A stretch of 64,000 nt of DNA. Origin: Paraspadella gotoi. Its lineage: Eukaryota; Animalia; Chaetognatha. The stretch is taken from assembly GCA_051294375.1 (NCBI GenBank), contig CM119263.1:20829661-20893660 (forward strand), read 5' to 3'. Made by a program: the position numbers and the translations under genes. The notes beneath the pieces are model-generated. The model ran no database searches. It was not told where the DNA came from and saw nothing but the letters and a program-made list of their open reading frames with translations. This document shows positions 3,557 to 63,963 of the stretch, piece after piece. Numbering within the stretch: the stretch's first letter is position 1; every line of letters begins with the position of its first letter.

Positions 3557-4236
3557 TGAAGAGACAGTAATTATTTATAAGCGTTAATGACAGAACCGTT
3601 CAATATAAGCAGTCCCTGAGCTTTGGATCAGGCTGTAACACCATATTACAGGCGGTTTAAGCGCCCCGTCCCTCTTAACTGCTAGGCGGCCACCGGGCTA
3701 GAACCCCGGACCTTTGGGTTGGGACGCGAATGACTTGCCTTTGGCACAAATGGCCGCTAATGAACGGTTGGTGAATTTTAGTCTAACATATATAATTTTT
3801 ATATTGGTTGTACCAATTTCATATATTGGTTCTACCAATTTCATACATCTCCCCCCCCATAGGGAGAAGTCTGTTGTGTCTCTTCAGTGAATTGTTGTTG
3901 TTGGTGGAAAGTTCGTCACCAAGTTGAGGCATGTCGCCTGATGGCGGAAAGTGCATCGCCAGGTTGAAGCATGTCGCCTGAAAGTGTTGTTGTTGCTGTT
4001 GTGTTTGGAAGTCGGACTCACCATGAAGAGACAGTAATTATTGTTATGTGTTAATGACAGAACCGTTCAATATAAGCAGTCCCTGAGCTTCGGATCAGGC
4101 TGTAACACTGTGTTACAGGCGGGTTAAGCGCCCCGTCCTCTTAACTGCTAGGCGGCCACCGGGGTTGGGAGACGAATGACTTGCCTCCGGCACCAATGGC
4201 CGCTGATGAACGGTTGGTGGATTTTAGTCTACCATA
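3557..4236 (-). mobile_element. Miniature LTR element (TRIM/retrozyme-like), family A, full length
   Basis: Two LTRs (~3557-3790, 4024-4236), PBS TGGTGAGTCCGAC (4011-4023, minus), G-rich PPT (~3850-3858), TSD AGCA on both sides. Confidence 0.9.
4077..4148 (-). ncRNA. Twister-ribozyme motif (type P5 permutation), family A 5' LTR
   Basis: Minus strand reads GCAGTT-AAGAG-GACGG-GGCGCT-TAA-CCC-GC-[P3 CTGTAACAC/GTGTTACAG]-CCTGA-TCCGAAGC-TCAGG-GACTGC. A mutated second copy lies at ~3609-3682. Confidence 0.75.
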
Positions 4237-5505: not shown

Positions 5506-5608
5506 TATGGTGGACTAAAATCCACCAACCGTTCATCAGCGGCCATTGGTGCCGGAGGCAAGTCATTCGCCACCCAACCCAGAGGTCCGGTGGTCGCCTA
5601 GCAGTTAA
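5506..5608 (+). mobile_element. Family A LTR 5' fragment (tRNA-like head only)
   Basis: TATGGTGGACTAAAA...GCAGTTAA matches the family A LTR start. Confidence 0.85.
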
Positions 5609-8128: not shown

Positions 8129-8307
8129 TTCCTTCCTTCTCCTCCTTTTTTGCGTCCTCTTAATTCCTCGTCCTTCTACCAAAATTTGCATAATCCGATT
8201 CAAATTGATGTTAATGACTCGAGGTTAAGGAAAACGAGGAAGGGGGGGAGATAGGGACTAAGATTTTAGCGGGCATTGCGCAGTTTAAGACATCCATCCC
8301 TTAGATG

Positions 8308-8404
8308 TGACCTGGTGGCTCATAGAGTGACCCATTTGGTACCGGGATTGGTCACCAAGATGGTACCAAACCTATGGGACGATTGAGGACGGCCGGAAAC
8401 CGCC
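8308..8404 (+). mobile_element. Decayed relative of the family C LTR (A-box plus 5' part of twister motif)
   Basis: GACCTGGTGGCTCATAGAGT...GAGGA-CGGCCG-GAA-ACC-GCC resembles family C ACCCGGTGGCTCATTGAGT...GAGGA-CGGCTG-TAA-GCC-GCC. Confidence 0.45.
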
Positions 8405-9584
8405 GAGGTTATGTTTGTTTGCTGGCAAAGAACTTTCAAACTTTCAAAGATCTTTAGCCAACTTTGGGACTCAACCAGAAAATGTGTAATGATACAAAAG
8501 ATCGAAGATTTCATTCCTGCCCTCGACATTTCGTATCGGAATATGTAAACCTCATTCTAATCTAATCCCTTTCGAAACTCGTTCGAGAAAGTAAACGAAT
8601 ATCAACGTCAAAGCAATTAAGTTAAATGTTTATTTAATTGGTAATGAAAAAATTATAAAAAACACACACGATTCTGTTTTTAAACCAAATACACGCAGCG
8701 GGGATCGAAAATAAAAAAAAATTAGATCTCTCGATCGGAAATCGAGATGGTCGGTATTTCTAAAATGAGAACGACTACTTGTAGAAAACACGTCTGTCAG
8801 TGCGTTACGACATACGAAATATAAGATATGGAGAGAAAATTGGAAATGGGGAGGAGAGAGGGGGGCGGAGGTTTAGCGGCAAATGCCCTTCAACAAATTT
8901 ATATAAAATTGATCTAAAATCTGAAAGGAACAGTTTTTCAAGTTAAGTCAATTTTTTTTATTTTCATGCGGTTGAATATTTTGGGTATTTGAAAATTTTG
9001 TAAAAATTCAAAGTAAAGTCAGTTGTAAATTACTATTGGCTAAGAAGTAAATACAATTAACGTTATGCCATATCTTCGATTGATCTGTTTATATCGATCA
9101 AACTATTGATTATACATTAGATACGTACTTACGAATGAAGTTTAAGCTACAAAAATATTATTATTGTCCATTAAGTTTGTCCATCCGACAAGTATGAAAA
9201 GTTTATGTGAATGAGATTTAAAGTATTAAAACTTTTTTTTTTAAATACTCGTTTTCAAGATTAATTAGGTTCATTCATTAATGGAAAAAAGCTAAACTTG
9301 ACGCCGCATCGTCGTTCAATCTCATTTTCTATCAACGCGCGTTTCATCACCATCCCTTTAAGGCAAAAGCGGTTTTCACAGAGTTCATAGACTTGAGAGA
9401 AGATTTTTCCTGAGCAAATCAAATTTATTTTTTCTTGTTTTTTTCTTGGAATAAAAAAAGTTCGACGATCCCTAAACGAGGAACGACGACCGCGCGGTGT
9501 CGCAGCCGTAGGGCCATCGCGGCAACCGCAGTTCCGCCGCGGCAGGGCAGTCACGACGCCGCCGCTGCAGAAAGGGTAGGAGCT

Positions 9585-10315: not shown

Positions 10316-13300
10316 ACTCGGAAGGAGTTCGATCCAATGCGGAATATTCTTCACGCCTGATCCTTCGAGATTCACCATCTCCACATTTGCGAAGAGTTTG
10401 AGTTTTTCCACGGGTTCGATCACTTCGATTTTGCTGTAGAAAGATGGAGATGTGATAGAAAGAAATTGATATGGACCATCAGATAGGGATGGAGATGGAC
10501 TTCCCTCTGCGTTGGCAAAGCAAGACCGTCCTAGGGTAACCGCGCCAGTGACTGGAGGCGTCACTGAGGGTCGGAAGCCCCCAAAGCCAACAGTGAGATG
10601 CCCCATCCCAATGGGCATCACAGGCAACTCAGCTGTTGCCATACCTACCATTGATATCCCCACAACATTTCTCGCCTCACCTTTCATTCAATCGAATCTC
10701 CTTGAGGTGAGCGACGTCGTCTGCTTTGACTGAATCCTCGATGATGAGACTTTGGATGCTGTTGCCTCGAGTCCACGAGTTGCGCCTCTCCGCGCTCAAG
10801 TCCAGCGTCTGGTTGAATGGGACATTAAGGGAGGGGTAAAAGCGATTGAAAGAATTTGTTCACTTAAAAATTTCTTGCGTAAAAGACAATGCTTTTTTTT
10901 ACCCTGTTATCTATAAATTCTTTTTAATCGTTCGAGTGGCAACCTCAACATAACAACGGCTGAAAGTTCAGAACTTGCACTTTCAACTTCCATTTATAGA
11001 ACTCGCCAAAGCGACAAATGAAAATTTAAAACTCCTTATGAAATTGGTACAACCAATATAAAAATTTCCCATTCATTTAAATAATTAAGCTATCTTGCCC
11101 CCGACTTTGGATAGGCTTTGGTGGTTTAAGGCATCCATCACTCTTACAGATAATGACATAGCAGGTTCCTTCAAGCTTTCAATCAAGACTCTCTCACAAT
11201 CTTGTTTATTCACTCCCAGACTACCTGGCTTCCCTATCAATGAAGTGGTATAATGTTTCAAAGAATGTTTCAATTGTATGAAAAGACCACTCCCTTAAGT
11301 ATATTATATCAAATTATATTATTATCATTCAATTCTATTCCTTGGTGACTTATCCTTGCGCATTTCTTACATATTGTACCCCTTATTGACTCAACCTCGT
11401 CCTTTCCCTGCGTATTTCTTGAAAATTGTTTTCATTGGCGATTCACCGTGGGAATTTCATTTCGCATTTTTATCAAGCCATGACCGGCGAAGCCGGTTCA
11501 AGGCTTGATATTCATTCGGGTGAGCTTCTTTGTGACGTAGTCGTCGTCGTCGTCCTCGTCGTCCGTCACGCTGTTTTTCTATATAAAACTACTACGCTTT
11601 TATAGGTTTGGCTGTGACTTACCGTTTTTTAAAAATAAAAATTATTATGAATTATGATAAAGTTTTACAAAAGTGTGCATTCATAGTAAGTTAAAAATTT
11701 AGATAATGGCTTCTCATCTTGAAATAGCTTTGATATTTTCTTATTACATTTGGATTTAAGTATTTTTGTTTGAATTTCCACTTCATTATGATTTACTGCA
11801 ATATGCAAATGAGATTATAGTACTCATTATCATATTCCAAATTAGTATATAGAAATGCTTTAATCTAATTTACATATTGCAGTATATAATATTGAAGATG
11901 AAATTCAAAAAATTTTTTTTAAATCTCTAATAAAAATGGGAACTCAAAATAACTTTTTAATGAGAAGCTATATCTTAATTTTAATACAAATAAAAATAAA
12001 ATCTTTTACAAGCTGCGATTGGAAAAAATTGGAAAAATTTCAAATTGTAAACCATTGTAACATTTTTTGCCTTTCTTTTTATTTTTTTTATTTCTTTTAT
12101 TTCAGAAAAAAACGAGTTTCAGTTTTTGCACTGACTGTACAGCGGCCTTCAAACAGCTGTCCAGCTTTGTCTCTCTTTCTCTCTCTCCTCTCTCTCTTTC
12201 TCTTCTGTCTCTTTCTCTCTTTACGATCTCTTGCGTGATCGTTTCTTTTTTGAAAAATTATGATTATGTTTTTCTCTTAAAAACTTTTATTTCGGGCTTT
12301 TTTCTCAATACAAAATCCCAAATTTACATCCGAGATTTTCGTGGATACATTTTTAAAAAGTGAAGAATAACTTATATTGACATGCATTGTCACATATAAA
12401 TCAGCTAATGTGACTTATTATATATGCAGCACTTTCGCCGAACAATATGCATTACATTTAAAAAAATAAATTTGTAATTTATTATTATTGTAACTTTGAA
12501 CCGGTTGCCCACTATTGGCAAATTATATCTTAAATAGTAGAGTTGATAAGAGAGATATAGTCAAATTAAACATTACTTTTTTTGTTATTCTGAATATTTA
12601 TACTATTATTAATTTATAAATATTTTTAGTGTATATATTAATCATTTTTATCTTTTTTTAAATAATAATTATTTGAGTTGTGAATAACTATTTATAAATT
12701 ATTAAATATGCAAATATAAAATTTGACCTCGGTCTGTTTCTTCCTAAAAAGAACAATCAAAAATTTCATTCAAGATAATTTTTTAAAATGAGGAAATAAA
12801 ATTTTTTTGATAAGTAAAAAAATATTTGGAAGTCAAAAATATTATAGTCGTTAACTGAGTATTTTTCAACTATATATTTGTTAATAGGGATTATAATTTT
12901 TGGATCAATTATTATTGAATAAGAGTGAAAGAGAGTTTAGTTTTTTTTCTTCTGAATAGGGGTAGCCCCTCTCAATGGGGTGAATCAAAAATTTTGTATG
13001 GGAACATGCTCAAACGAAATTTTATGCTTTTTTAAGTTTACTTTTCAATGTACAAAAAATTTTTACATGTCTCTATAGTCTCTATATGTCTCTTATACCA
13101 ATATTTATTTTGTAATATTTTTTTATAGAAAGGAAAAGAGTTCGTCCCTACTCATATTCGTCGGAAAATGAGTTCAGCTCTGCAGCGGCGGTCCAGCGGC
13201 GGTCCCAGCGGCTTGTCCAGCTTCTCTCTCTCTCTTTCCTCTCCTCTCTCTCTCTCTCTCTCTTTTTTTCCTTCTAAAAACTTTTATTATCGCCATTTAT

Positions 13301-19700: not shown

Positions 19701-20969
19701 TGTTAGAGCTAATATGTCGAGAAATACATTATAGTCATCAGTAATCACAAAGAAATAAGTTCTTATTTATTTGTGTTCATTCTGTTTTCAATATTTTTTT
19801 TTTAAATGGGTAAATAACAAAATTGTTAAGTTAAATGGGTAAGCACATTTTTTAAAGATTTGTTTTTTCAATCTGGTTGTTAAAAAATTCTAGTAAGAAG
19901 TTAAAACACGGTATGGGATAGTTTTAGAGGGAGAATTGTTGGTTTTTCCAGTCATGAACAAAATCTTCAGTTAAAATGATGGTAAAGAAATTCGAGCTAC
20001 AATGAATCTACACTGAATTTGAAGAGTTGCAGCCAAAACGACTGCAATAATATTGAATTAAAAATTTGATTAGCAATCTTAAAAACATTTGTAAAAATGT
20101 AATAGAGAGACATTTTGATAAACGCGTTCCAGTTAGAAAGAATTCAGGGTTAAAGTTTAAAAACGTTTGATTTTCAAGGATACAAGTTGAAATTTAAAAA
20201 ATGTCTCTCTATTACATTTTTCTAATTCAGTAATAAAGAATTCATAAAAATATCAGATGGATTGGCCTTTTCGTTTGACCTGCAACTCTTCAGATAGGTT
20301 TCTTTTTATTTTATATTATAATTAAAACCGATATAAAATGGGGTAGAATGTGAAAGTGAATACATTTCGGAATCGCCAGGAGCTCAGCTTTTCTGAATTT
20401 GTACTCCATTTTAGCCTATTTTGAAGTTGAATTGAATGACCTTTTTCTTAAAAAATTATGCAAATTAAAAAATTATGCAATGTTAAAAAAATTATACAAG
20501 TTGAAAAAAATTATGCAAGTTGAAAAATTATGCAAGTTGAACAAATTATACAATTTAAAAAATTATGCAAATTAAAAAAATTATGCAAGTTGAAAAAATT
20601 ATGCAAGATGAAAAAATTATATAAGTTTGAAAAAATTATACAAATTTAAAAAATTATGCAAGTTAAAAAAAGTATGTAAGTTGAAAAAAGTATGCAGGTT
20701 GGCAATATAAAAAGTGTGATGCGACGGACGACAACAATAACGACGACGACGACGACGACGACTACGTCACAAATAAGAATCAGAAGCAGCAGCGACGGAG
20801 AAAAAGAGAGAGAGAGAGCGACATATAATTAAAGAGAGAGAGAGAAGCTGAACTCGTCCGGTTGCCTCGGAGGTAGCGCGAGCTCCCCCCAATCTAAAGA
20901 CTCGGGTTCGCGGCCCTGCTAATTCACAAAAGAAAAGCAAAAAAAAAACTGAATAAAAAATTGTTTTGT

Positions 20970-21020
<51 letters not shown>

Positions 21021-24000
21021 AGAGTGAGAAAGAGAGAGAGAGAGAGTTTTCCCACCAACGAGACGCATTATTAGGTCACTCTCGTTTATTTTCGGTTTTC
21101 CGTGCCTCGCAACGGCGGCTGAAATTGGTTCATGTTGATTTATCACGTAACGTTTCCGTTGCCATTAGGTCATATTCCTCGACATTGTTTACATTGTTTA
21201 CATTGTTTTAACCACGAAATCTAGGTCAAGTAAGTTATTGTATTTTGGGATTTTGTATTGAGATAAAAATAATAAATGGCGATAAAAAAGTTTTAAAAGG
21301 AAAAAAAATAATCAGAATTTTTAAAAAATGAACGATCCACGCAAGAGATTCATACAGAGAGAGACAGACACACACAGAGAGAGAGACAGAGAGAGACAGA
21401 GAGAGAAAAGGCACACAGAGAAGACCAGATGAGAGAGGACACACAGAGGAGAGACCGCAAAACAAATTAATTTTTAGAACCGTGATAGAAATAAAATTGT
21501 GTTAGTATATGTGATTAATAACATAAACAATAACTTCTATTTTTTTTTAAATTGAAATAAGAGCTTAGAAGCGCTATAGAAAAAGAAGCCAGTGACTTTT
21601 TTTCTATATTTCTATATCGATAGAGTTGTGGAATTGACGGGGAATATTGTAAATCACAAGTTTTCGCTTAATCGGACCTCACATTGTGGAGAAATCTTAG
21701 GGAAACCCATCAAAATTCACCCCTTTTTTTTCAACATTCTCGCCTTTTTATAGATTTTCGCCGATTCTGACTTCCTCTTACAAACTTATAAATTCCGCTA
21801 GTTAATTTTTTTCTTAAAAAAGAAGGCGAAGGGAATCCATACTTTCTGTTATTTTATGATTTCTGGGTAAAAAAATATAGATGAATTACATTATTATTGG
21901 GATATTAAGAAAGTAAAATGTCTTGTGAAGCCTGTGAGAGTTAAATAATTAAAAGATTCGCCTATTTTTATTATGAAAAATGACATTAAGTGAAGTAGTT
22001 GAACCGTCTTCCAGCGTCATTTCACTAAACATTCACTGTTCTCTAACAAAAATAATGTTACTTTTTGCTGGTGGAAAAGAAAGATAAATAGTTAGGCTGT
22101 GATGGGGTGAATAATATTTTGTAGAATTTTGTGAAGCATGCTTGTAATATCAGGCAAGCAAAGTATTTAGTGAAAAAAAAAATTATATTTCCTTTATCCA
22201 AAAAACTTTAAAGTTTTACTATAGTACAATTTAGCCTTTTTTCTTTCAGAATCACTAAAAAGAATTTAATTTTCATTTTATTTTATGGGTTTCATTAGTT
22301 TTTAAAATTCATTATAATTTTGACTTAGTTTGACACTCACCCTGTAAAGAGGTTTCAGCAAAAAATAATTCTAGATATTGTAACTTGTATGTGCCCAATG
22401 ATTATGGCTTCATTTTGTACTATTGCCATCCCTGCTATCTTTGTTTCCTTCAAGAGATATCAGGAAAACATCAGTTTTTTTTCGTCTCAACCTTCCTTTT
22501 AATTCCTTATTAAATAAAAATTTTCATGTTGTCAAACCAGACCATTGGACTTTACAATGCGTTGGTTTACTATGAAGAGTTTGGTCAATATGAAAAAGAA
22601 AAATTTGGCAAGCTGCTTGAGACAAAGAGGCCTTTCTAATCTCAAATTCGAAGTTAATATTTTATAATGTTAACATACCCTAGCNNNNNNNNNNNNNNNN
22701 NNNNNNNNNNNNNNNNNNNNNNNNNNNNNNNNNNNNNNNNNNNNNNNNNNNNNNNNNNNNNNNNNNNNNNNNNNNNNNNNNNNNTTTCTTTTTTTCCTCT
22801 ACTTTTGTCTTCGAGTCTTCGAGTTAAGGACGGAGTTGAAACGGACCACGAAGGCGACAGGAAACCTTACCCTCGTTACGATCTTGACCATACCCAATTC
22901 ATTCGTCGAATCGGGTGATTAAATGCTGCTTACTGCTCAACGATCATAAATTGCGATTTATGATGCATCGAAGCGGTTGCCTAACAAATTAATTTACTAC
23001 AAATTAATGTAGTGCATTGTACAACAAAAAATTATGTATTACAAGCCTGTTTGAGAATAAAAAAAATTGAATTTTCCCCCTTAGAAAACTGAGTAAATTT
23101 CGGTTCCATTGTTACATTATTTTCTTGAGAGTCAGATTGTATATAAAATAATTATATAACAATGTAGTCTCAAAGGTTAAATAAATAAATAAATAAATAT
23201 ATATTATATATAAATTGAAGAGACAGTAATTATCGTTATATGTTAGTGACAGAACCGTTCAATATAAGCAGTCCCTGAGCTTCGGATCAGGCTGTAACAC
23301 CGAGTTACAGGCGGGTTAAGCGCCCCGTCCCCCTTAACTGCAAGGCGGCCACCAGGCTAGAACCTCTGCTGCATTTTCTAATAAAGAATTGATATAATTT
23401 TTGCTACTTTTAATAAAAAAAATTATGTCCATTTTTGTCCATTTTGACTTTTGTCTTGAGATTTGAACGTCAAGATCATTGAAGAAAATTTTTTTACTCT
23501 GGATTTTGGGTACTTCTTATCTTCTTTACCACTGAGTCGGTTAATTTGCCATTGGTAATCCATTGTTTGCCTATGAATTCATTTTTAAATTGACTAGTCA
23601 AAAATTTACATTTTTACATTTCATTACAATTTGTTCTACGAAAATACTTCAAAATATCCACAAATCTAATAAAATATTTCATTTCAACGGTGCTTCTGGT
23701 ACCTAAAAAATTAGGGCAAAAAATTTAATAGTTTTGCAGCAATTAAATTTTTAAGTCAACTTTTAATTTGTAAAGGATTTGTGAGGTGCCTTTTATTTGA
23801 ACTAAAACTGGGTTTTTGACTGATTTTATAATTTTAATAGATGAGAAATATAGTAAGGTTAAAAAAAAACCGCATTCTTTTAATGTAATGGAAAGCATCA
23901 GTAATTTTTTTCCTCTCAATCGACAGGTTTTTGCGGAAAAAATTTTCGCAAAAATCTCGATTTTTTAAATCTGCTAGGCAACCAAACTTTGAATAAAATC

Positions 24001-25759
24001 ATACGATACTTAATAATTTTTTCTTACAATACATTTTAAATATTTTTATACATCCAGTATGATATAAATGGAAAAAATGAATGAAAATGAGAAAAAGATA
24101 AGAGAAGAGAGAGCATGGGGAAAAAAAGAGAGAAAGAGTGGAAAGAAATTAATATAGAGAAGGGGGAGAACGAAAACAATTAAGAGAAAAAAAAAGATAA
24201 GAAAGAGGGAAGAAAGGGAATCAGAGAGGGAGAGAAAAGCAGAGATAGAGAGGAAGAGAAATAAAGGTAAAGGAAGAAAAGAAGGGATGACACAGAAAAA
24301 TATGAGGACAGAAAAGTCGGAGATAGGGAGAGAAAGAGAGAAAGAGAGAAAAAGAGAGGGACAGTGAGAAGGTTCAAGAGAGAAAAAAATAGTGAAAAAA
24401 ATGGAAAAAAGTTTTAAAATATAGCGAGCCGTTTTTGTTTTTTTTTGCCTAAGCTGTAGTATATCTAAAAAACGCGATAGATCTGACGAGCAATTTAATC
24501 TTTAAAAGTTGTCCTTACCATGAAAAATCGTTTTAGTTTCATCTTAATTAGGGTAGATACCTTAATTAGAATGATTAAGCCTTAATTTCTTTTACCTTAA
24601 TTTAAGGTAAAAGAAATTATGTCTTACCATATTTTGAAAGCATAGAAATTCACCCAGTGAGTTCGATGTTATAAGGAGAAAATAACTATAGCCAACCGTT
24701 TTTTAAAATAAAGCATGTTTTATATTAATCAGTGGAAACAAAAGAAATAATAGCTATATAAGCCGAATATAAATCACTGACATATATGCTCCCTCTATTT
24801 CCAGAAGACAACACTGACTTCCCCTTCCCAAAATGAGTTATTAGATATAATGATAAGTAAAAAATTTTTAAGAAAGCGATACATTGTAGTGGTAGTATTT
24901 CATACCCCACTACTCGTCCGAGAATCCGCAGCACCTATGCCATAGGCTATGGCGCCGGAGGTAGCACGAGCTCCTCCCAACCCAAAGGACTCGGGTTCGC
25001 GCCCTGCTGATTCACACAAGTAAAAGCGGGACGGGGCGTCTAACCCACCTGTAGTGTCGGACTACAGTCCGATCCGAAGTTCGGGACTTTGTGTGCAACG
25101 GACGGTAAACTGCTCGCGGCATCGTTTTCCACAACATATATATATAAATATAGATTAAAAAGTAAATCCTTCATAAAACATAAAAATAAAAAATAGTGAA
25201 ACAAGTAATTTGAAAATTTTCATATAAATAAATAAATTAATTAATTAATTAATTAATTTTTTTCCTCGAGATGTAATCCGATAAACCAAACCATAGACCG
25301 TGACTCATTCATTCACTCGTTTAACCCGGAAGGCAGTCGATCGAAGAAAAGAGGTTAAGCCTCGCGGGTGAAGCGGCTGGGGTCGGGGAGCTAAACCCGC
25401 CCTTTGACATCTTGTCGCCCCTCGCTCTCTCTCTCCCTTCTCTCTCCAGATAGAGAAGGATTCATTTTCTCTCGTAATAACTGACCGCGGCTTTCCAACT
25501 TGCACAGATAATTTCTCGATTTAACGGTTATTTCTTATATTAAGGGAGAAATTTTAGTTAAGACGAACATTGAAGTATACTTTTTTCCCTGACGATACTC
25601 CCGTTTCCTTCTCTCTCATCTTCTCACTCTCCATCTCACTATCAATATCTTACCTTTTTTCCTCTCCGCTCACGAAGGTCGATAAATTCTGATCTCACCT
25701 CCGCGCGATGAAAAAATTCTTCACTTTACAAGAACAAAATTTGCATTTCTTCCCCCCCC

Positions 25760-38380: not shown

Positions 38381-39034
38381 TGAAGAGACAGTAATTATTG
38401 ATATGTGTTAATGACAGAACGTTCATTAAGCAGTCCCTGAGCTTCGGATCAGGCTGTAACACCATGTTACAGGCGGGTTAAGCGCCCCGTCCCTCTTAAC
38501 TGCCAGACGACCACCGGCAGAACCCCGGACCTTTGGGTTGGGAGGCGAATGACTTGCCTCCGGCACCAATGGCCGCTGATGAATGGTTGGTGGGTTTTAG
38601 TCGCACCATACATCCCCCCCGCCCGTAGGAAGATGTCTGTTGCGTCTCTTCAGTGAATTGTTGTTGTTGTGGAAAGTGCGTCACCAAGTTGAGGCATGTC
38701 GCCTGATGTGTTGTGTGGCGGAAAGTGCATCGCCAGGTGAGGCATGTCGCCTGAAAGTGATTGTTATTGCTGTGTGTCGAAGTCGGGCTCACCAATGAAG
38801 AGACAGTAATTATTGATATGTGTTAAACTGTTAATGACAGAACCGTTCAATATAAGCAGTCCCTGAGCTTCGGATTCAGGCTGTAACCCATGTTACAGGC
38901 GTGTTAAGCGCCCCGTCCTTCTTAACTGCCAGACGACCACCGGGCTAGAACACCGGACCTTTGGGTTGGGAGGCGAATGACTTGCCTCCGGCACCAATGG
39001 CGCTGATGAACGGTGGTGGGTTTAGTCCACCATA
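38381..39034 (-). mobile_element. Miniature LTR element family A, full length
   Basis: LTRs 38381-38610 and 38796-39034, PBS TGGTGAGCCCGAC (38782-38794), PPT ~38613-38622, TSD GTTA. Twister motifs at ~38429-38503 and ~38857-38929. Confidence 0.92.
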
Positions 39035-44930: not shown

Positions 44931-47374
44931 AAATATATTATAATTAAAAAATAAATAAAAAAAGCAACAAAATGGTTTATTAGATTTCCCTTCAGCGCAA
45001 AGGCTCTCGAAGCACCTCTCTTGGCAAGAGAGTTCCCTAATAGGGAAAGATACATACTTTAAACAAAATTGAAACCAATAAATACTAAATTATAAGCTTG
45101 CATATGTATCAGAGCAGAAATTGTGTTTTTACAATGGCTTTTTGAAATAGATTTCAGTTGGTGAACTTTATATATCAAACAATATCGCAGTTCTTGAGCC
45201 CTGTTTACTGCAAAATATTATTACCTGAGCTTTAATTTTGTATCATAACTAATCAAATATGAAAAAGATATTTTTATGAATAATTGCTAGCTAATATTGA
45301 CTTTTGATTAGAACCATAATAGTCCAAGCTTACTCCACTTTTGATGATCCGCATTTTCTGTTTTATGTGCATGTAAAGAGCCAGAAAAAGCACTCGTCCA
45401 TTAAGTTCTTCAACACAATAAAGTTTCGGGATAAGTACTGATTCATTTAGCGCTTCTATCAGTTAAAGTTTATCGAAGTTTTTGTTAACCAGCAAAATTT
45501 ATAGTATCGAGATTAAGAGCAAAAAAAGCATCAAGAGATAAGGAAGTGAAGAGAGAGTGAGTGGAGTGTGCGAGGTGAGAGAAGAAACTCCATGCAGATA
45601 GTCCGACTTGATATTCAAGAATATTGCTCTACATCCGTACCACGTTGCCTACATCGGTGCTTAACTCTGATCACAAATCTACCCGAGTGAGAGTGAGGGT
45701 GCTGCTTAGTACTGATTGGGTGAGCGTCGGTGGGGTGGGTGTGAGTGTGCGTGCCGTGTGGATGAGCGCGCGAGTGTGAGCGAGGAGCTCCGAAGTTGAG
45801 CGAGAGGTTGGCCGCGAGTGAGTGTGTAATGGGTACCCAGGGATATTGACAAATATATATGATTGAAAAATGCATATTTTTCTCAATTATCATTTAAATG
45901 GAGCTTCAGAATGAATCTTTTCAAAGGGAACTGCTGAATATAAAAGCAATTTTCTTTTGTTCCAACATAGAAATAATCATCTTGAGAGCCAAAACCTTAA
46001 GACCAAAATTTTGTTATAAATAAATATGTGGGGGGGGGGGTGGGGATGACCGGTGAGCGGTGGTGAGAGAGTGTGTGGTGTTCGAGGGCAGGGAGGCTGG
46101 AAGCGGTGGAGAGGGTGCGCCGGTGTGAGAGTACAGGAGCGTGGTGGTAAGCAGGGGATGAAGGAGGCTAGGTCGAAGTGATGTGAGAGCTGGTGCCGAG
46201 AGTGTGGTGTGGCGGTAGTGTTTGGTGGTGGTGGTGTGGTGTGGTTTATTAATTTTTAAGTTGCCCACTTTAATCAAGCAAGTGGGGTTTTGGCTGATAC
46301 TAAAGATTACAGACACTTGAGTCCTTTGAAATTTATAATAACTATTAAAAAATGAATCTGAAGATATTTTATGAACACTTGGTAACTATATATTGTTATC
46401 TTTTGTTATGAAAAAATTAGGCCCATAAATACGACTTGCTTCTGATAAATCAGCATCTGTTTTCTATGCAAAAGCAGAGTTAGAAAAGCTCGTCTTCAAG
46501 TTCTGGCAGGAGACAGAAAGTGGGTGGTGTGTTCATTTTCAACTATTCAAGTAGAGGTTATTGAAGTTTTTTTATCTCAGCTAATTGATATATCAAAGAT
46601 TTAGCAACAAAAGATAAAAGTCATCAACGACAATAAGGTATCCTAAGAAGTTTTATTTGCTTTGAAAGAAACTCATGCAGATAAGCCGACTTTGAATCCA
46701 TGATATGTTGCTTACGTCCAATACCCACGTTTCATACACTGGTTCTGAAATAAAAGCAATTTTCTTTTCAACATAAGAATATTCATCTTTGACACCAAAC
46801 TTTAACCAAGATTTGTAATAAAAATATTTCATGACCATCATTTATAGATTTCTCAGACAAGCTCAAGCAGCTCTCTTAAGAAGGAGTTCCATGAAGGGAA
46901 GATACATACTGCTAACAAATGAACTACTCAATTATAAGCTTCATTTTCACGTGTATATTTTTTCTTGCCATACGTTGCTTGGAAATTTTTTGAGTTAGCC
47001 ACTTAATGCAAGCAAGTGGAGTTTTAGCCATTTATACTAATAGAATAAGACCACTTGAGTGAACAGTATTTATAATAATATTAAAAGAATGAGTGAAGAT
47101 ATTTATATGAATAATGTAACTAATATTTTTAGCTTTTGATTATGTGAAAAATTAGTCCAATATTACGCCGCTCTCATAATCATCTCTCTCTTTTGCCTGA
47201 ACCGGCTTCGCCGGTCATGGCTCGATAAAAATCCTTGTGGATGATTTGGTGTCCGACCAGAAAAAAATATGATCTTAATGGTATTTTCATTTTTTCAATA
47301 TTACTTGAAATAAAAATATGAATAATATTATCATAATATTTTCATAACATTGTCACTCACTTCTTGTTATCACT

Positions 47375-48010
47375 ATGGCTTATCTTAATAATATACAAAA
47401 ATGCAACAAAAGTAGGTGCGGCACTTCTCCCTTTATTCAAGAATGTAATTTTTTTCAATCTACCCAAACAAATATAACATATTTTCCAATATTAAATGGC
47501 TCAAATACTTTAAATTGTAATAAAGAAAATATAATATATTTAATATCATGTCATATCTGTTCAATGCAATATATAGGAGAAACAAAGAATAGTCTAAGAA
47601 TAAGGTTTAATGGTCATAAACATTCTATAAGGTCAGGAAAAAGTTCTCAAATTATCCATCAACATTTTAACAATGAAAATCATGGTCTAGAAAACTTAAG
47701 AATTTTACCAATAGAAAAAATTAGACCAATGAATAATAAAATAAATCAAAATAAATTAAAACTAGAAAGAAAAGCACATTGGGAAAAAAAATTTAAATCT
47801 CTTTACCCTTTGGATTAAATGTAAGATTAAAAGGTATGGGAGATTTTGTACCATTTCAACAAAACTATCAAATATATGGAAACACAAGGAGAAAAAAACG
47901 ATCACACGGAAAAAGAAAACCAAAAAATAAAAGACCAGGGCGTATTTTTACTTTAACTTATTTAAAAAAAATATATAATAATATAAAAAATAAAGAATAT
48001 CACATGCATT
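47375..48010 (+). pseudogene. 5' fragment of a Naiad/Chlamys-type Penelope-like ORF with N-terminal GIY-YIG endonuclease
   Basis: KCNKSRC...CNKENIIYLISCHICSMQYIGETKNSLRIRFNGH...HF...PIE...LYP(LGLN), then basic RRKKRSHGKRK. Frameshift near 47810, truncated by the insertion at 48015. Confidence 0.8.
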
Positions 48011-55481: not shown

Positions 55482-57125
55482 TTATGTTCTTTGGCCTGAT
55501 ACGCCTGCCGGATGCCCTCTTCTCGCCTGCTGACGAGGTGGGCGTGTCCTTTGCCACTTTTTGTGACAGGAGTGACGGACCTCCTCTCCCTCCTCCTGAA
55601 GCCGTCGCTTTGGGCGACGCTCAGTCCGCAGAGAGAGGGACTGAGTTGCTGCATCTAGAGGAGAGGCATTGTTTGCCATTGCCTGCGGCAGGGTCTCCGC
55701 TGTCTCTGAGTGGAGACTAGGGGAGTCATTGTGCGGCGTGGTGGCGTGCGGGGCCTCACCACGCTTTTGATTAAGCGAATCATAGCTTGGAGGGAGATCG
55801 AAACGTCCTCCATCACGGTTCAAAGAGTCGAGGGCTTTGATGTAAATTGCCTCTCTAATACCTCTTGAGAACAGTTTCGGGTCATGGGACAGCACGAGAC
55901 AGTCTGATTCCCTGAACAGATGGCCTGTGTCTGCTGAATGTTCGCAATTGCGGACAAATAGTGACCTCGGGCGATCACGGTAAGGTTTTTTGTGTTGTTG
56001 GAATCGATCTGTCAGAGACTTTCCTGCTCTCCCACAGTATGCTGGCTGCACAGGATTGGTTGCCCACCCCTGCACAGGCCGCCCAGTAGACGGCTCTGAT
56101 GTTTTCCGGTCTGGGGATTTTATCTTTCGGTTTCACCATTGCTCACGTAGGAGCCGCGGGCCGTCACTGAAGTGGAGATCCCCTGCTTTGCCAGCACCCG
56201 CCAAAGCTTCAGTGATCCCCCTGGTGGTAGGGGAGGGACAAGTGACCCACGTTCCTTGGCGCTCTCTGCTTATCTTCCACTTGCGCGCTGTGGTGGGCGC
56301 GGTCGCTCTCAGCAGCAAGCTCCGTTCTGCCTCCTGGGGGTGGAGGTAGAACCTGCGTCAGCGGTTACTGGACAGCCCCTGGTTGGCCACTGTCCTCAGC
56401 AGGCGCGGCCGATATAGCCTTCTCGAAGCCACAATGGGTAGCCATTGATCGCCAGGCTCTTTTGATGTGCTCAAGCTCGGCGGCCTGAAGCTCGGGGGTC
56501 GACGGAATCAGTGCAGCTCTCCTGGTAAGGATCTGACCGTGGCGAGCTTGTGAGACAAGGGAGCATGTGAGATGAAGGGAATGTATTGGTCCGTGTGGGT
56601 CGGTTTGCGATATACTGAGAATTCCAATGAGCCGCCCTTTGCGTTGAATCAACACATCGAGCATTGGAATTGACCCATTCACCTCCCTCTCACATCGTCC
56701 ACTTGATCGCACATGGATGCTGTTCAGGTGGTTTAGTAGATCCTCAATGAGCTTTGCGCACAGCCAGAATGGTATCGTCTGCTTTCCGATACCAGAAGAG
56801 GACTGACTCTGCCCCATGCAACAATCGAAAAGAGGCCAAAGCTTCCACCTCATAGTCCTCCATATAAAAATCGCCAGAGGACTTGACGTTGATTTGCCCA
56901 TCCCTAAGCCACCAGGCTGGGCATAATATTGTCCATCGACCTGAAGTACGCCGTTCCAGGTCCAGCCGCAGCAATGCCATGATATCATCCAATTGGATTG
57001 GCGTAGCTCGTGCAATGACCGGTCTTCCCTCGAGCGGCGCTCTGCGGAAGCTAACGCCAAGTCTTGGGGAATGTTCGTAAACTGCTTTGTAAATCGCACG
57101 AGACCAAGGAGGACGTTTCGATCTC
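55482..57125 (-). pseudogene. Penelope-like reverse transcriptase plus C-terminal GIY-YIG endonuclease, multiply frameshifted
   Basis: [59 protein letters not shown] (RT). AYCG...DRFQQH, EHSADTGH, RGIREAIYIK...LNRDGG (EN). Confidence 0.9.
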
Positions 57126-58021
57126 CTCCAATGCTATGATTCGTTATCAAAAGCGTGGTGGAGGCCCGCCGCCACCACGCTCCGCGACAATGACTCCCCT
57201 ATCTCCACTCAACGAGACAGGCGAGACCTTGCGCAGGCAATGGCAAACGATGCTCTCCCTCTAATGCAGCAACTCAGTCCCTCCCTCTGCGGACTGAGCG
57301 TCGGCCCAAAGCGACGGCTTCAGGAGGAGGGAGAGGAGTCCGTCACTCCTGTCACAAAAGTGGCAAGAACGGACAACCGCCCACCTCGTCAGCAGGCGAG
57401 AAGAGGCAGCCGGCAGGCGTATCAGGCCAAAGAGACATAAGAGTAGCCCTGGGGATCTTTCCGCAAGGATCGCTTCCCAATCCGGCATTCACAGATTCGG
57501 TCATACTCTCCTCTCAGCCACTGAGCACGCCAATGACCCGTCATCATCGTCCTGTCCTTCATTTGCATAAAACAAGGGGGCCAGCTCACTTTGAGCTCTT
57601 TCTTTCCTTGAATTTCACTTTCTTAATCTCTTAATTATCAACTAAAACTAAAAACTACTTTCTTTCATATTTCATTTTCACTTAACTATCCCTTAGCTAA
57701 TTACTTATTTATTCACTAGTTAAATGTTAAAATTTCTCCAATGTTATTTTTCAAACTCCTTTATCTTTGTTGTACATTGCAAAAATGTATCTTTATTATT
57801 TATTTATCTCTGTTGTTTTTTGTTTCTCTCTCTCCTCTCTCTCTCTCTCTTTAACAAGTTTCACTTCTTTTCACAACTCACTCAATCTGTCCTCACCTTC
57901 AACCTGTCCTCACATCTGACCACTATTCTGTCTCACCACTTTGTTGGAAAAACTTTTACCCTCTCTCTCTCTCTCTCTCTCTCTCACACTCTTCTTTTGC
58001 ACAAAATTTATTATTGAATGT

Positions 58022-59380: not shown

Positions 59381-60329
59381 TGTGAGAATTGTTTAATAGT
59401 AAGAATGAAATATGAAATATAAAATGGAAGAATAAGTTATGAGGGATAGCTAAGGTAAGTTTTTTAGAGAAAAAAAAGATGAGAAAGAGCTCAAAATGAC
59501 CAAAACTGGTTCTCAAGAGGCATTAGAGAGGCGATTTACATCAAAGCCCTCGAACCCTCTTTGAACTGTGATGGAGGACGATTCGAACTCCCTCCAAGCT
59601 ATGATTCGCTAATCAAAACTGTGGTGGAGCACCCTACGCCACCTCAGCCGCATGGTGATTCCCCTGTCCCCACTCAACGGGTCAGGCAGAGACCTCCTAG
59701 CAGGCAATGGACATCTGATGCCTCTCCTGAGCCTGCAGCAACTTGGCACGACTCTTCTCGTGCTGAGCGCCGCCCAAAACGACAGGCCAGAACAGACAAC
59801 TGCCCGCCTCATCATCAGGTGAGAAGAGGGCTCTCGGCAGGCCTATCAGGCCAGAGAGATATACGAGTGGCACTTGGCATTTTTCCAGCCGGATCTTTGC
59901 CAGACCTGAACCAATCCCACTCCACCACAATATCCTCTCAGCCCATTACAGGCCAATGAACCGATCACATCGGTAATGTCCTTCATTTGCCCGGCCAGGG
60001 GGGGCCAGCTCATTTTGAGCTCTTTCTCATCTTATTTTTCTCTAAAAAACTTACCTTAGCTATCCCTCACAACTTATTCTTCCATTTCATATTTCATATT
60101 TCATTCTTACTATTAAACAATTCTCACAAACATTTATTTATTACTAACTTATGTTACTTTAGTTTTTTCACTTCTATTCACTGTTGTACATTGCCAAATG
60201 TATTGATCTCTCTCTCTCTCTCTCTCTCTTTCTTTTTCACCAATCTCAAATTCACTCACTCTCCTTCCCTTCCCTCACTTTCTCCTGTCCTAACATCTGA
60301 CCACTGTCCTTTACTCAATTTCTTTGTTG

Positions 60330-60570: not shown

Positions 60571-61026
60571 GGTTCTAAACATATATAAATGTAAATTATA
60601 GTAAAGCATATTTTTCAAATACTAAGAATAAGGGGTATATTTCTTTTACTGAGAAAGATTTAAATATTGTCTTAGAGAAAAACAAAGTTTTATTAGTTTC
60701 AACGAATTTGTTTTTATTGGAAAACAGACATATCATATATAAATATTGTCTTTAACTTTATTTTAGATAATGTGTTTGTCAAATTTGGCTCCTTAATATA
60801 TAATTTATCCAATGATTTATCCAATTGGTATTCCTAATGTTTGTTTATATTATAAACAAACATTAGGAATACCAATTTTTTTTCGTTGCTAAGTGAATAT
60901 TAAGAAATGTTTATTAATGTGCCAATATAACGATTTTTATTATTAATAGTACAGGTTTCGACACTGTTGGTTCGAGTCTTCATCAGCTTTGAAAAAACAT
61001 TAACAAAATGCTCTACACATTAAGTT

Positions 61027-61070
<44 letters not shown>

Positions 61071-61665
61071 AGAGAGATTGAGGGAGAGTTTCCAACAAAT
61101 GGCTGAGTAAAGGACAGTGGCCAGATGAGAGGACAGGTGAAGGTAAGAACAAAGAAGAATAAGATAATTTTGAAATGGTGAAAAGTGAAAGAAAGAGAAA
61201 GAGAAAGAGAGAGAGAGAGAAATAATTACATTTGACAATGTACAAAAAAGATAAAATTGGAAAAACTTAGAAATAAGCTGAGATTTTGAATTAATAACAA
61301 AAGTTAAATAAGTAGTAATGAAAATTGAAATGGAGGAATAGGTGGTGAGGGATAGATAAGGTAAGAGTTTAGTGAAATATATGAGAGAAAAAAGAGCTCA
61401 AAAATGAGCTGCCCCCCCCGGGTGGACAAAGGTGGGACGCTGACGATGTGATCGGGTCATTGGCTTGTCATAGACTGAGATGATATTCTTGTAGAGTGGG
61501 ATATAATGGGGTCAGGTAAAGACCCGCCTGAGAAAATACCAAGTGCCACTCTATGAGTGGGGGGGCCAGCTCATTTTTGAGCTCTTTCTTCTCTTATATA
61601 TTTCACTAAACTCTTACCTTATCTATCCCTCACCTCCATTTCACCTCCATTTCAATTTTTATTAC

Positions 61666-61949
61666 TGTGGATAAGGTGCTAAGTGGGCTGAGGATGAAGA
61701 TATCTAACTTCTTTAACCCCCTCTAGCAGCTATGGCACGGGTCCTGGGCTTGGAACCAGGCTTGAGGGTTTTCCACGCCCCCAAGGCGGCTTACAGCCGT
61801 CCTCACACTTCCAGCAGGGTAGGTACCGGGTTGGGATTGAACCCGGTACTGAGTGGTCATGAGCTGACGGCTTTACTCAATGAGCCACCGGGTCACGACT
61901 GAAGGTGTCATGCTTAGAAGCGGGGTGAACTTTGCTATGCCCGACTACA
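61666..61949 (-). mobile_element. Solo LTR, family C (tRNA-like head plus twister motif)
   Basis: Minus strand TGTAGT...CCACA, TSD TTAC, and the empty site is visible in the opposite pLTR arm. A-box TGGCTCATTGAG and B-box GGTTCAATCCC (~61830-61893). Confidence 0.88.
61741..61812 (-). ncRNA. Twister-ribozyme motif (type P5), family C
   Basis: GTGT-GAGGA-CGGCTG-TAA-GCC-GC-[CTTGGGGG/CCCTCAAG]-CCTGG-TTCCAAGC-CCAGG. T1 covaries to TCC/GGA. P5 is weak. Confidence 0.72.
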
Positions 61950-62404
61950 TTACTACTTATTTAACTTTTGTTATTAATTCAAAATCTCAGCTTATTTTTA
62001 AGTTTTTCCAAATTTATCTTTGTTGTACATTGTCAAATGTAATTATTTCTCTCTCTTTCACTTTTCACCATTTCAAAATTATCTTCTTCTTCTCTGTTCT
62101 TACTTTCACCTGTCCTCTCATCTGGCCACTGTCCTTTACTCAGTCCTTTGTTTGAAACTCTCCCTCAATCTCTCTCACTCACTCTCCGAGAAAATTACTG
62201 GACCAAATTCATTTTTTCTTAAATATTTTGCTTATATTTATTTTTAAAAATAAATAAAACAATATATTTTCTTTTATTGTTTTAATTTCATTATCAACTA
62301 TATTTTTAATTTGTTATTACTATATTTTAAGCCCAAAATTACTTTTCCCAGATGGCATGAAATATGAGTATTATGGTGGACTAAAACCCACCAACCGTTC
62401 ATCA

Positions 62405-62477
62405 GCGGCGCATTGGTGCCGGAGGCAAGTCATTCGTCTCCCAACCAAAGGTCCGGGGTTGTAGCCCTGTGGTCGTC
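62405..62477 (+). promoter_or_regulatory. tRNA-derived Pol III (A/B box) head within the LTR
   Basis: TGGTGCCGGAGG (A-box-like), CGCCTCCCA (resembles a Gly-CCC anticodon loop; cleaner in the second LTR), GGTT(C/G)TAGCCC (B-box-like), closing GCGGCCA/TGGCCGC in some copies. Confidence 0.6.
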
Positions 62478-62479
62478 TG

Positions 62480-62553
62480 GCAGTTAAGAGGGACGGGGCG
62501 CTTAACCCGCCTGTAACATGGTGTTACAGCCTGATCCGAAGCTCAGGGACTGC
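62480..62553 (+). ncRNA. Twister-ribozyme motif (type P5), family A 5' LTR
   Basis: GCAGTT-AA-GAGG-GACGG-GGCGCT-TAA-CCC-GC-[CTGTAACA/TGTTACAG]-CCTGA-TCCGAAGC-TCAGG-GACTGC. Predicted cut between 62503 and 62504. Confidence 0.8.
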
Positions 62554-62901
62554 TTATATTGAACGGTTCTATCACTAACTCATAACAATAATTACTGTCT
62601 CTTCATTGGTGAGCCCGACTTCCGAACACAACAGCACAAACAACACTTTCAGGCGACATGCCTCAACCTGGCGATGCACTTTCCGCCCACAACACATCAG
62701 GCGACATGCCTCAACTTGGTGACGCACTTTCCACCAACAACAACAATTCACTGAAGAGACGCAACAGACATCTTCCTACGGGAGGGGGGGATGTATGGTG
62801 GACTAAAACCCACCAACCGTTCATCAGCGGCCATTGGTGCCGGAGGCAAGTCATTCGCCTCCCAACCCAAAGGTCCAGGGTTGTAGCCCTGTGGTCGTCT
62901 G

Positions 62902-62975
62902 GCAGTTAAGAGGGACGGGGCGCTTAACCCGCCTGTAACATGGTGTTACAGCCTGATCCGAAGCTCAGGGACTGT
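62902..62975 (+). ncRNA. Twister-ribozyme motif (type P5), family A 3' LTR
   Basis: Identical core. Predicted cut between 62925 and 62926. Confidence 0.8.
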
Positions 62976-63963
62976 CTTATATTGAAGGCGGGCGGTTCTA
63001 TCACTAACTCATAACAATAATTACTTTCTCTTCAGTATCAGCATTAAGTATGTAAACTACTTGGCTACTACCAGACCCAGAACCAATAAAATTATTAAAG
63101 AAGATTAATTCATTGATAAATAAAAAAATTAACAGATAATAAAAAAATTAGTAATAAAAATAAGGATGCATACATTTAAAGAGATTTGCATTGTAACATA
63201 TTCAGTTGTATCCTGATATGATTGGCAAGATTAAAACCTCGATCAAAGATGATGTAAAAATGTACACAAGACTCAAGTCGCCCAAAACCGTTTTGTATCT
63301 TATTTAGAATGTCAAAGCTCATTAGAATTCTTTGCAGAATATGATAGGGATTACTCAATACCTCCCTAGCTGATTATATTAAAAAATTCGAGCTCGATAT
63401 GAAAAGTAAGTATCCTATGGATATGATTTTCAAATAAAAAAATCTAAAAAAAATTTCTTTCTATTTTTTTATCATTAATAAAAATTTTAACTCAAAGTAA
63501 AAAAATGATATTCTTGAACATACTGAAAAATGTTTATCTTAATTAAAAACAACTATATAATAGACTCCAACCCCAATCACCAAACACCAAATACCAAACA
63601 CCAAACATATTCTTAGCTATTAATTTTTTTTTTATAAAATTATTTTATCTTACATTAAAAATATTTGGGCTAAAACTAATTGAATTTCAATGTTGAGCAA
63701 ATTAAAGTTTTATATTTGATAAAGATTTTGTTTAAAAATTAATACCGAAAAATATCCTATTTTGTTATTTTTTTAATTTTATATGAAAATTTACAAAATT
63801 ACTTGTTTCACTATCTTATATTTTTATATTTTATGAATGTTTTACTATTTAAACTATATTATTTAATTATATACTTTTTTAAAATATTATTTGATTATTA
63901 TATCTAATAACTCATTTTTAGAGGGGGAGGTCAGTATCGTCTTCTGGAAATAAAGGAAGCATC

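Follow-up and report, generated by a model that had tools for sequence, protein, structure and literature searches.

Putative tRNA-derived heads joined to predicted twister ribozymes within the LTRs of Helenus-type miniature retrotransposons in Paraspadella gotoi

LTR retrozymes are known mainly from plants, where they carry hammerheads; a 2026 preprint, in its accessible part, likewise describes them as primarily plant elements with type III hammerheads. In plant LTR retrozymes (Cervera 2016, PMC4918200), as PMC7761336 and PMC9695139 describe them, each LTR bears a ribozyme, the element has a PBS, a polypurine tract (PPT) and a 4-bp TSD, and unit-length RNA arises between two cuts, a plan to which the elements described below are alike. 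The plant elements differ in that their ribozyme is a type III hammerhead and their PBS matches tRNA-Met, with no tRNA head noted in the accessible parts of these sources. For the plant retrozyme NbRZ1, an LTR promoter upstream of the ribozyme has been demonstrated (PMC7761336, PMC9695139), and plant retrozyme circles have been demonstrated as well (PMC7761336, PMC9695139), whereas the circles of the present elements are predicted from sequence. The SINE-like hammerhead repeats of Schistosoma (PMC6765202) are alike in having a Pol III promoter followed by a ribozyme, so arranged that the unit, once cut, carries the promoter at its 3' end, but they are tandem, non-LTR repeats, and single copies lose the promoter and are dead.

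The closest relatives in overall build are the Helenus TRIMs, or TRIMp3 (Kojima 2024, PMC10886601), which are non-coding elements of <1 kb with two LTRs, a PBS and a PPT, and which further share with the present elements a tRNA-like LTR head with A and B boxes, the 4-bp TSD of the animal group and a Gypsy-type PBS. The use of Pol III by Helenus was inferred, not validated, in that paper, and Helenus heads are inferred promoters without an account of RNA end formation. Most of the Helenus LTRs read for this comparison end in a T-rich tract soon past the B box; in the accessible parts of the paper, ribozymes appear solely in a citation of retrozymes and none is named for Helenus. Cassandra, as described in the same source, also has an internal Pol III promoter in its LTR, but that promoter is 5S-derived, the element belongs to plants, its transcript ends are set by a terminator, and no ribozyme is described for it there. 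Twisters, in turn, have been associated with retroelements through the T-variants of Perere-3 (PMC8501958), a non-LTR element that carries them at its 5' end, whereas the twisters reported here sit in LTRs.

Here, we describe three families (A, B and C) from one window, meaning the whole stretch of 64,000 nucleotides that was analysed, and we consider it on balance probable that they are Helenus-type miniature LTR retrotransposons whose LTR combines a tRNA head, likely a Pol III promoter, with a predicted self-cleaving twister. The window holds three full copies and three fragments of family A, with B and C present as solo LTRs. The segment at 62405-62553 covers the head and the twister fold in the 5' LTR that opens a full, 663-bp, non-coding family A copy with TA...CA ends (62372..63034, +), flanked by the 4-bp TSD GTAT (62368-62371 and 63035-63038). 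Contigs of two public runs (X1 and X9) contain a joint that skips 667 bp, as an empty site for this copy would; run X9 consists of contigs, is RNA only by guess, and is silent on transcript start, ends and strand. The 5' LTR (62372..62605, 234 bp) is 95% identical to the 3' LTR (62794..63034, 241 bp), in which the A box lies at 62835, the B box at 62879, the twister at 62902-62975 and the predicted cut at 62925/62926. Behind the 5' LTR stands the PBS TGGTGAGCCCGAC (62607..62619), matching in 12 of 13 nt the tRNA-Trp-CCA PBS given in Kojima's Fig. S2 for Gypsy-32_NVi and Helenus-2_SyJa (PMC10886601), and the polypurine tract (62780..62791) is separated from the 3' LTR by a 2-nt spacer. The predicted cut-to-cut unit (62504..62925, 422 nt) would thus comprise U5, PBS, internal part, PPT, U3 and head; its circular fold has z = -2.3.

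The second and third full family A copies lie on the minus strand at 38381..39034 (TSD TAAC) and 3557..4236 (TSD TGCT), and all three are non-coding, 654-680 bp long and equipped with two LTRs, a PBS and a PPT. The copy at 38381-39034 has many single-base indels, which are perhaps assembly errors, and statements on single copies that rest on indels are correspondingly uncertain. Truncated family A LTRs are found at 23216..23364 (-; from the B box to the LTR end) and 5506..5608 (+; U3 and head with the B box deleted). Family B is represented by a solo LTR (24885..25133, +; TG...CA, TSD ACAT) with its A box at 24950, B box at 24994, a palindrome at 25035-25040 and a predicted cut at 25041/25042, and by a decayed head lacking a twister (20855..20940, +). 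The solo LTR of family C (61666..61949, -; TG...CA, TSD GTAA) has its A box from 61887, its B box at 61843-61833 and a predicted cut at 61793/61792; it is nested in a long inverted-repeat element (61000-62190, of which 61020-61420 mirrors about 61560-62190) that is probably a MITE-like host. All five insertions retaining both ends carry a 4-bp TSD (GTAT, TAAC, TGCT, ACAT and GTAA). Families A and C are abundant repeats: in a public DNA run, 17,525 contigs cover the family A stretch plus flanks and 5,510 cover C, numbers that are not copy numbers. Runs X10 and X11 gave 1-3 contigs, and run X12 gave no cover of family C.

Several further features of the window were noted. A hairpin stands at the start of the LTR (U3) in A (62374-62393) and B (24886-24913), which places it directly behind the PPT in the cut unit, and the internal part of family A (62643-62735) contains a duplicated motif of about 45 nt and is A/C-rich and weakly folded. 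A decayed family-C-like copy at 8307-8420 (+) keeps an A box, a partial head, the 5' half of a twister and a perfect palindrome, CGGCCG; another decayed stretch at 25280-25420 (+) is similar to the A/B head and a twister 5' half (nhmmer E 1.8 only) and is perhaps an old subfamily. Penelope-like remnants, with broken RT/endonuclease-like frames recognised by eye, occur at 47348-47815 (+), 55482-57200 (-) and 59483-59956 (+), and a below-cut-off GIY-YIG match falls among them (E 5e-4). A loose regular expression picked out at least 11 motifs that resemble type I hammerheads (CTGAnGA...GAAA) and are likely ends of Penelope-like elements, among them 3372, 16426, 33924, 58028 and 60482 (+) and 60986, 54897, 37644, 15829, 14951 and 7404 (-). 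Together with the 4-bp TSDs, the Penelope-like remnants and these motifs point to an animal host. Among the window frames searched against Pfam (11, then 83 of the 131 listed), no Gypsy domain was found, the only hit being the sub-cutoff GIY-YIG, and no helper element was found within the window.

The head of the family A 5' LTR spans 62407..62478 (+), Pol III being predicted to initiate near 62407 (T8 minus 7), with an A box TGGTGCCGGAGG at 62414..62425 and a B box GGTTGTAGCCC at 62457..62467 that carries C56G in this copy. The earlier note had claimed A and B boxes at tRNA spacing in all three families, and this is borne out: the distance from T8 to G52 is 43 in this LTR and 44 in its 3' LTR (62835/62879), in B (24950/24994) and in C (minus strand, 61887/61843), and 27 of 33 reference tRNAs have a spacing of 43-45. 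A head pattern from family A fetched 121 viral loci, from which the pattern-matching tRNAs were dropped, leaving 45 neighbouring tRNAs as an unbiased panel. By mean alignment score to this panel, each of the six heads tested exceeded all 300 of its dinucleotide shuffles, which upholds the earlier claim of a tRNA-like head inside the LTR; judged by this likeness, the heads of A, B and C are tRNA-derived. In a box-pair matrix built from 33 of the 45 panel tRNAs, C ranked 1st and B 3rd among the 567 scored pairs of the window, and shuffles of their own LTRs reached the observed score in 0 of 300 cases (C) and 1 of 300 (B). The copy at 62372 ranked only 20-21, with 23/300 and 17/300 shuffles reaching its scores (P about 0.06-0.08), because C56G is present in both of its LTRs. 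Box pairs at 59641, 35441, 4670 and 63619 also scored highly but have no twister or LTR context and were set aside.

None of these heads is a tRNA gene. ARAGORN at default settings called none in the window, and its relaxed calls (33 at -ps80) were discarded as noise; the relaxed covariance search proposed earlier as a check came back empty, Rfam giving no tRNA match in the heads even at E<=10. The cloverleaf of a functional tRNA is absent, as the head folds without an anticodon stem. The loops CCTCCCA and CTCATGA noted earlier are indeed present, but no anticodon stem closes them, so that reading these unstemmed loops as Gly(CCC) and Met(CAT) is unsupported; loop words much like these can be read in Helenus LTRs of fish and fungi too (PMC10886601). 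With the anticodon masked, the family A pattern matched 122 sites in viral contigs (GTT 94, CAT 13, GAT 6, ACG 5, TTT 3, TCT 1). In the viral panel, which is biased by the search pattern, A and B aligned best with Met/Asn and C with Lys/Asn; in the unbiased panel other tRNAs came first (Ile, Gly, Trp and Phe). The winners thus differ between the two panels, and we name no parent isotype. As to the suggestion that different tRNAs were captured, the heads of A and B, going by their sequences, represent one capture because they are 67% identical, while the head of C is 46-52% identical to A and B, like unrelated tRNAs (medians 49-52%).

Directly behind the head, as had been proposed, follows a type-P5-like twister fold with P3 (62480..62553, +; the head ends at 62478), with a predicted cut between T62503 and A62504. 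The distance from start to cut is 97, 98, 99 or 102 nt, and the cut lies 47-51 nt past G52 in A, B and C. A structure-aware regular expression matched seven twister sites in the window, every one of them inside an A, B or C LTR; 40 windows shuffled locally gave no match. The order of elements is that of a P5 twister (core U^AA, GA and L4; P2, P4 and P5) plus the extra P3, and the likeness to type P5 (RF02684) extends to the conserved residues and two pseudoknots; the differences are a 6-nt palindrome in place of P1, the added P3 and a score below the gathering threshold. The T1, T2 and P4 pairs all form in A (fully intact in 4 of 7 copies), B and C, and the pseudoknots covary between families (T1 CCG/CGG versus TCC/GGA; T2 GC/GC versus AC/GT), while P3 and P4 differ between families yet stay paired. 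The best Rfam match in C was Twister-P5 RF02684, at 15.9 bits against a gathering threshold of 37.6 (E 2.9); A and B gave no Rfam twister match at gathering or E<=10, no Rfam hammerhead was found in the A, B or C LTRs, and the unconstrained fold of family B differs from the twister fold. We predict self-cleavage by the LTR twisters with considerable confidence. The A/B twister pattern had no match in metagenome contigs and the C-type pattern none in viral contigs; the sole metagenome match to the C-type pattern (L122) is GC-rich, probably coding and lacks the pairings, and was dismissed as chance. A fourth twister (11092-11152, -) is of P5 type with linker ATGCCT, T1 CCA/TGG, T2 AC/GT and no P3; no A/B-box head is seen upstream of it, it has no second copy in the window, and its palindrome is imperfect. 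To judge from this site, the twister module also occurs without a head.

We propose the following course of replication. Pol III would probably start at the 5' LTR head and read through to the 3' flank, a step suggested because family A lacks T4 runs, and the twisters of both LTRs would likely cut. Cleavage would drop a 5' piece of about 98 nt and release the 422-nt unit with the 3' LTR head retained; the earlier idea that the head is passed on through the 3' LTR copy would hold if the twister cuts, the head lying inside 62504..62925. The 422-nt unit has no terminal repeat, and reverse transcription would therefore need a circle or a template jump. It is reasonably likely that a host RtcB-type ligase closes the unit, so that the circle stands in for the R region: RtcB circularises the monomers of animal retrozymes (PMC7229834) and also joins the ends of Tornado transcripts, which ribozymes flank. 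In contigs, the junction of such a circle would read the same as the LTR. A Gypsy-type helper that uses tRNA-Trp as its primer would then copy round the circle, and a two-LTR copy would integrate with the promoter restored at both ends, both heads deriving from the parent 3' LTR. Compared with the Schistosoma repeats, the LTR pair, PBS and PPT of family A would rebuild the promoter. What counts for this course are the tRNA-like heads, the 43-44 spacing in three families, the covarying pseudoknots and the population variants that spare the C boxes; damaged B boxes, C56G, off-consensus boxes, sub-gathering Rfam scores and a T4 in B count against it.

One alternative keeps the Pol III head as in Helenus and assigns replication to ordinary uncut RNA, with R reaching from the head to the LTR end and a slow or partial twister that limits or turns over the RNA. 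The short P1 of only 6 nt and the low Rfam scores would suit it, as would T1 variants, of which the most frequent is a G>A at 62538 in 14% of family A depth; moreover, most of the Helenus LTRs examined spread without a ribozyme (PMC10886601). Against this stand the covariation of both pseudoknots between families, a second lineage with apparently a different ribozyme at the same place, and population variants that spare the twister fold: those of family C lie in a P2 bulge (61807), in the arm or loop of P3, or at 61790, where pairing is retained, and P5 forms again with the letter that prevails at 61813. Replication from uncut RNA is, we think, unlikely.

The A box is unchanged in 6 of the 7 family A LTRs that cover it. 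Of the 8 family A LTRs of the window that cover the B box, 6 have it damaged, among them the 5' LTR of every full copy, and 2 keep GGTTCTAGCC. For genomic copies this touches the box conservation on which the earlier note staked its reading, but it does not do so for the population majority: C is the majority letter at C56 in contigs of run X1 (96% and 94% of summed depth), whereas the copy at 62372 has G in both LTRs. In the copy at 3557..4236 (-) the 5' LTR has no B box and the 3' LTR retains GGTTCTAGCCC. The LTRs at 4024-4236 (-) and 5506-5608 (+) lost their B boxes through different deletions, both between repeated CC/CCGG words of a T-arm-like hairpin. Kojima's box B word GGTTC is present in B, in C and in the majority sequence of A, the copy at 62372 having GGTTG; the box A word TRGCY is present only in C, and A and B have GG but not YGG, with none in C. 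The majority boxes of family A are off consensus, with T at R57 and no A14, and two A-box places vary at about 12% in family A contigs. For family C, none of the 40 variable places listed (there are 9 further ones) falls in the A or B box; U3 has 5. A C subfamily apparently has GGATCGA for GGTTCAA in the B box (loose end 61827), a change that still fits the box. C56G abolishes the B-box-dependent integration of TRE5-A (PMC5391098), and as both of its LTRs have this change, the copy at 62372 is probably a daughter with a dead promoter. That the B box is dead in each LTR would be accounted for if both heads derive from the parent's 3' LTR, which need not work as a promoter, or by a copying error.

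Termination signals are less informative. Neither the 422-nt unit, as reported earlier, nor the three full family A copies contain a sense-strand T4, the first one downstream of the copy at 62372 lying at 63291, and in this and in the 74-nt twister fold that follows the head family A is unlike most of the Helenus LTRs read. As a sign of read-through this counts for little, as 27-52% of shuffles of the 422-nt unit also have no T4 and the family B LTR has one about 10 nt before its end; the absence is compatible with Pol III and weak as evidence. The only TATA-like word common to the family A LTRs lies behind the twister, and a Pol II start there would lose sequence upon cleavage.

These data also bear on a second alternative, namely that the head is what remains of a captured SINE, or only a landing site for TFIIIC, and that the RNA arises by host Pol II read-through from which the twisters excise the unit whichever promoter is used. 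Such a scheme was first put forward for plant retrozymes, and PMC7761336 models read-through by Pol I, II or III. The damaged B boxes in 6 of 8 window A LTRs, C56G in both LTRs of one insertion, the T4 in B and internal T4 runs in the wasp relatives discussed below are what such a relic would lead one to expect, but the 44 spacing and intact B boxes persist in heads that are just 46-52% alike, no listed variable place lies within the C boxes, and C remains the majority letter at C56. We regard a relic head as distinctly unlikely. Highly improbable is a head retained for the shape of its RNA (mimicking a tRNA towards RNase P/Z, a ligase, Gag or RT) and not as a DNA promoter. Family A does form 7 of 7 pairs of an acceptor-like stem, shifted by one position, and on the 3' side of this stem both segregating changes are C/T facing a G, but B and C form only 5 of 7, an anticodon stem and CCA are missing, and the head, read from its sequence, is not complementary to the PBS, which makes self-priming impossible.

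Returning to the favoured reading of a Pol III head with a cleaving twister, the place of stem P1 deserves separate attention. It is occupied by a 6-nt linker (GGCGCT at 62497..62502, +). In all three families this linker is self-complementary, centre pair included, as are 5.3% of 6-mers; A and B being related, two of the three palindromes are independent. The centre pair cannot close inside a single molecule, and a strand-swapped dimer lies below two monomers by 11.7 (A) and 10.1 (B) kcal/mol when pseudoknots are ignored. That P1 is a 6-nt palindrome suggests that the twisters of the two LTRs pair through it, and we lean slightly towards cutting by two twisters that have swapped strands and are held together there. 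In axolotl, dimers favour cleavage by hammerheads whose stem has 1 bp and whose tetraloop is palindromic (PMC7229834). On the other hand, P1 is dispensable in twisters and defects in it are tolerated (PMC11662667), and monomer cleavage would therefore also be possible. A dimeric twister of this kind was not found in the literature searched.

With regard to classification, a tRNA head in the LTR is the defining mark of Helenus and already known; family A would function as an LTR retrozyme driven from a Pol III head does, but files under Helenus and not under retrozymes as they are defined. Cassandra, which the earlier note had offered as precedent, proved the wrong one: the nearest system is Helenus, with its tRNA head and, in animals, its 4-bp TSD, and no 5S match was found in the A, B or C LTRs by Rfam at gathering or E<=10. 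No twister-bearing LTR element and no ribozyme-bearing Helenus was found described in the open literature searched, Repbase, subscription journals and preprint supplements being outside that scope. The published consensus LTRs of Helenus-2_SyJa and Helenus-2_SyUm from Synergus wasps (PMC10886601) do, as read by eye, contain a complete, unannotated type III hammerhead, with a cut about 93 nt past the head start and a loop-loop pairing of ~12 bp. These two elements are alike in having a tRNA head and then a ribozyme, no T4 in the LTR and a tRNA-Trp PBS; they differ in that the ribozyme is a hammerhead and not a twister and in having at least 4 internal T4 runs by eye. In the accessible Helenus supplement, hammerhead core words gave 7 matches, 2 of them with full context, and twister L4 motifs gave 3, all in internal parts, with line breaks that may hide some. 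The recurrence of head and ribozyme in published consensus LTRs would both support the design and trim its novelty.

A bolder version may be put forward tentatively, as possible rather than probable. The present elements would be self-sufficient animal LTR retrozymes, a natural 'Tornado' system, in which a Pol III head drives an obligate strand-swapped double twister that cuts only two-LTR transcripts to a circle replacing R, and the ribozyme would be an exchangeable module of a hidden TRIMp3 branch, with a hammerhead in the same slot in wasp Helenus.

What appears new against the literature searched is the joining of a tRNA head and a twister within one LTR, two tricks so far described in separate element families. 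If the reading is true, Pol III makes the RNA of such an LTR and the ribozyme sets both of its ends, while having two LTRs avoids the promoter loss that the Schistosoma repeats suffer (PMC6765202). These elements would then represent a natural circle made by Pol III, twister and RtcB in an animal, together with a candidate dimeric twister.
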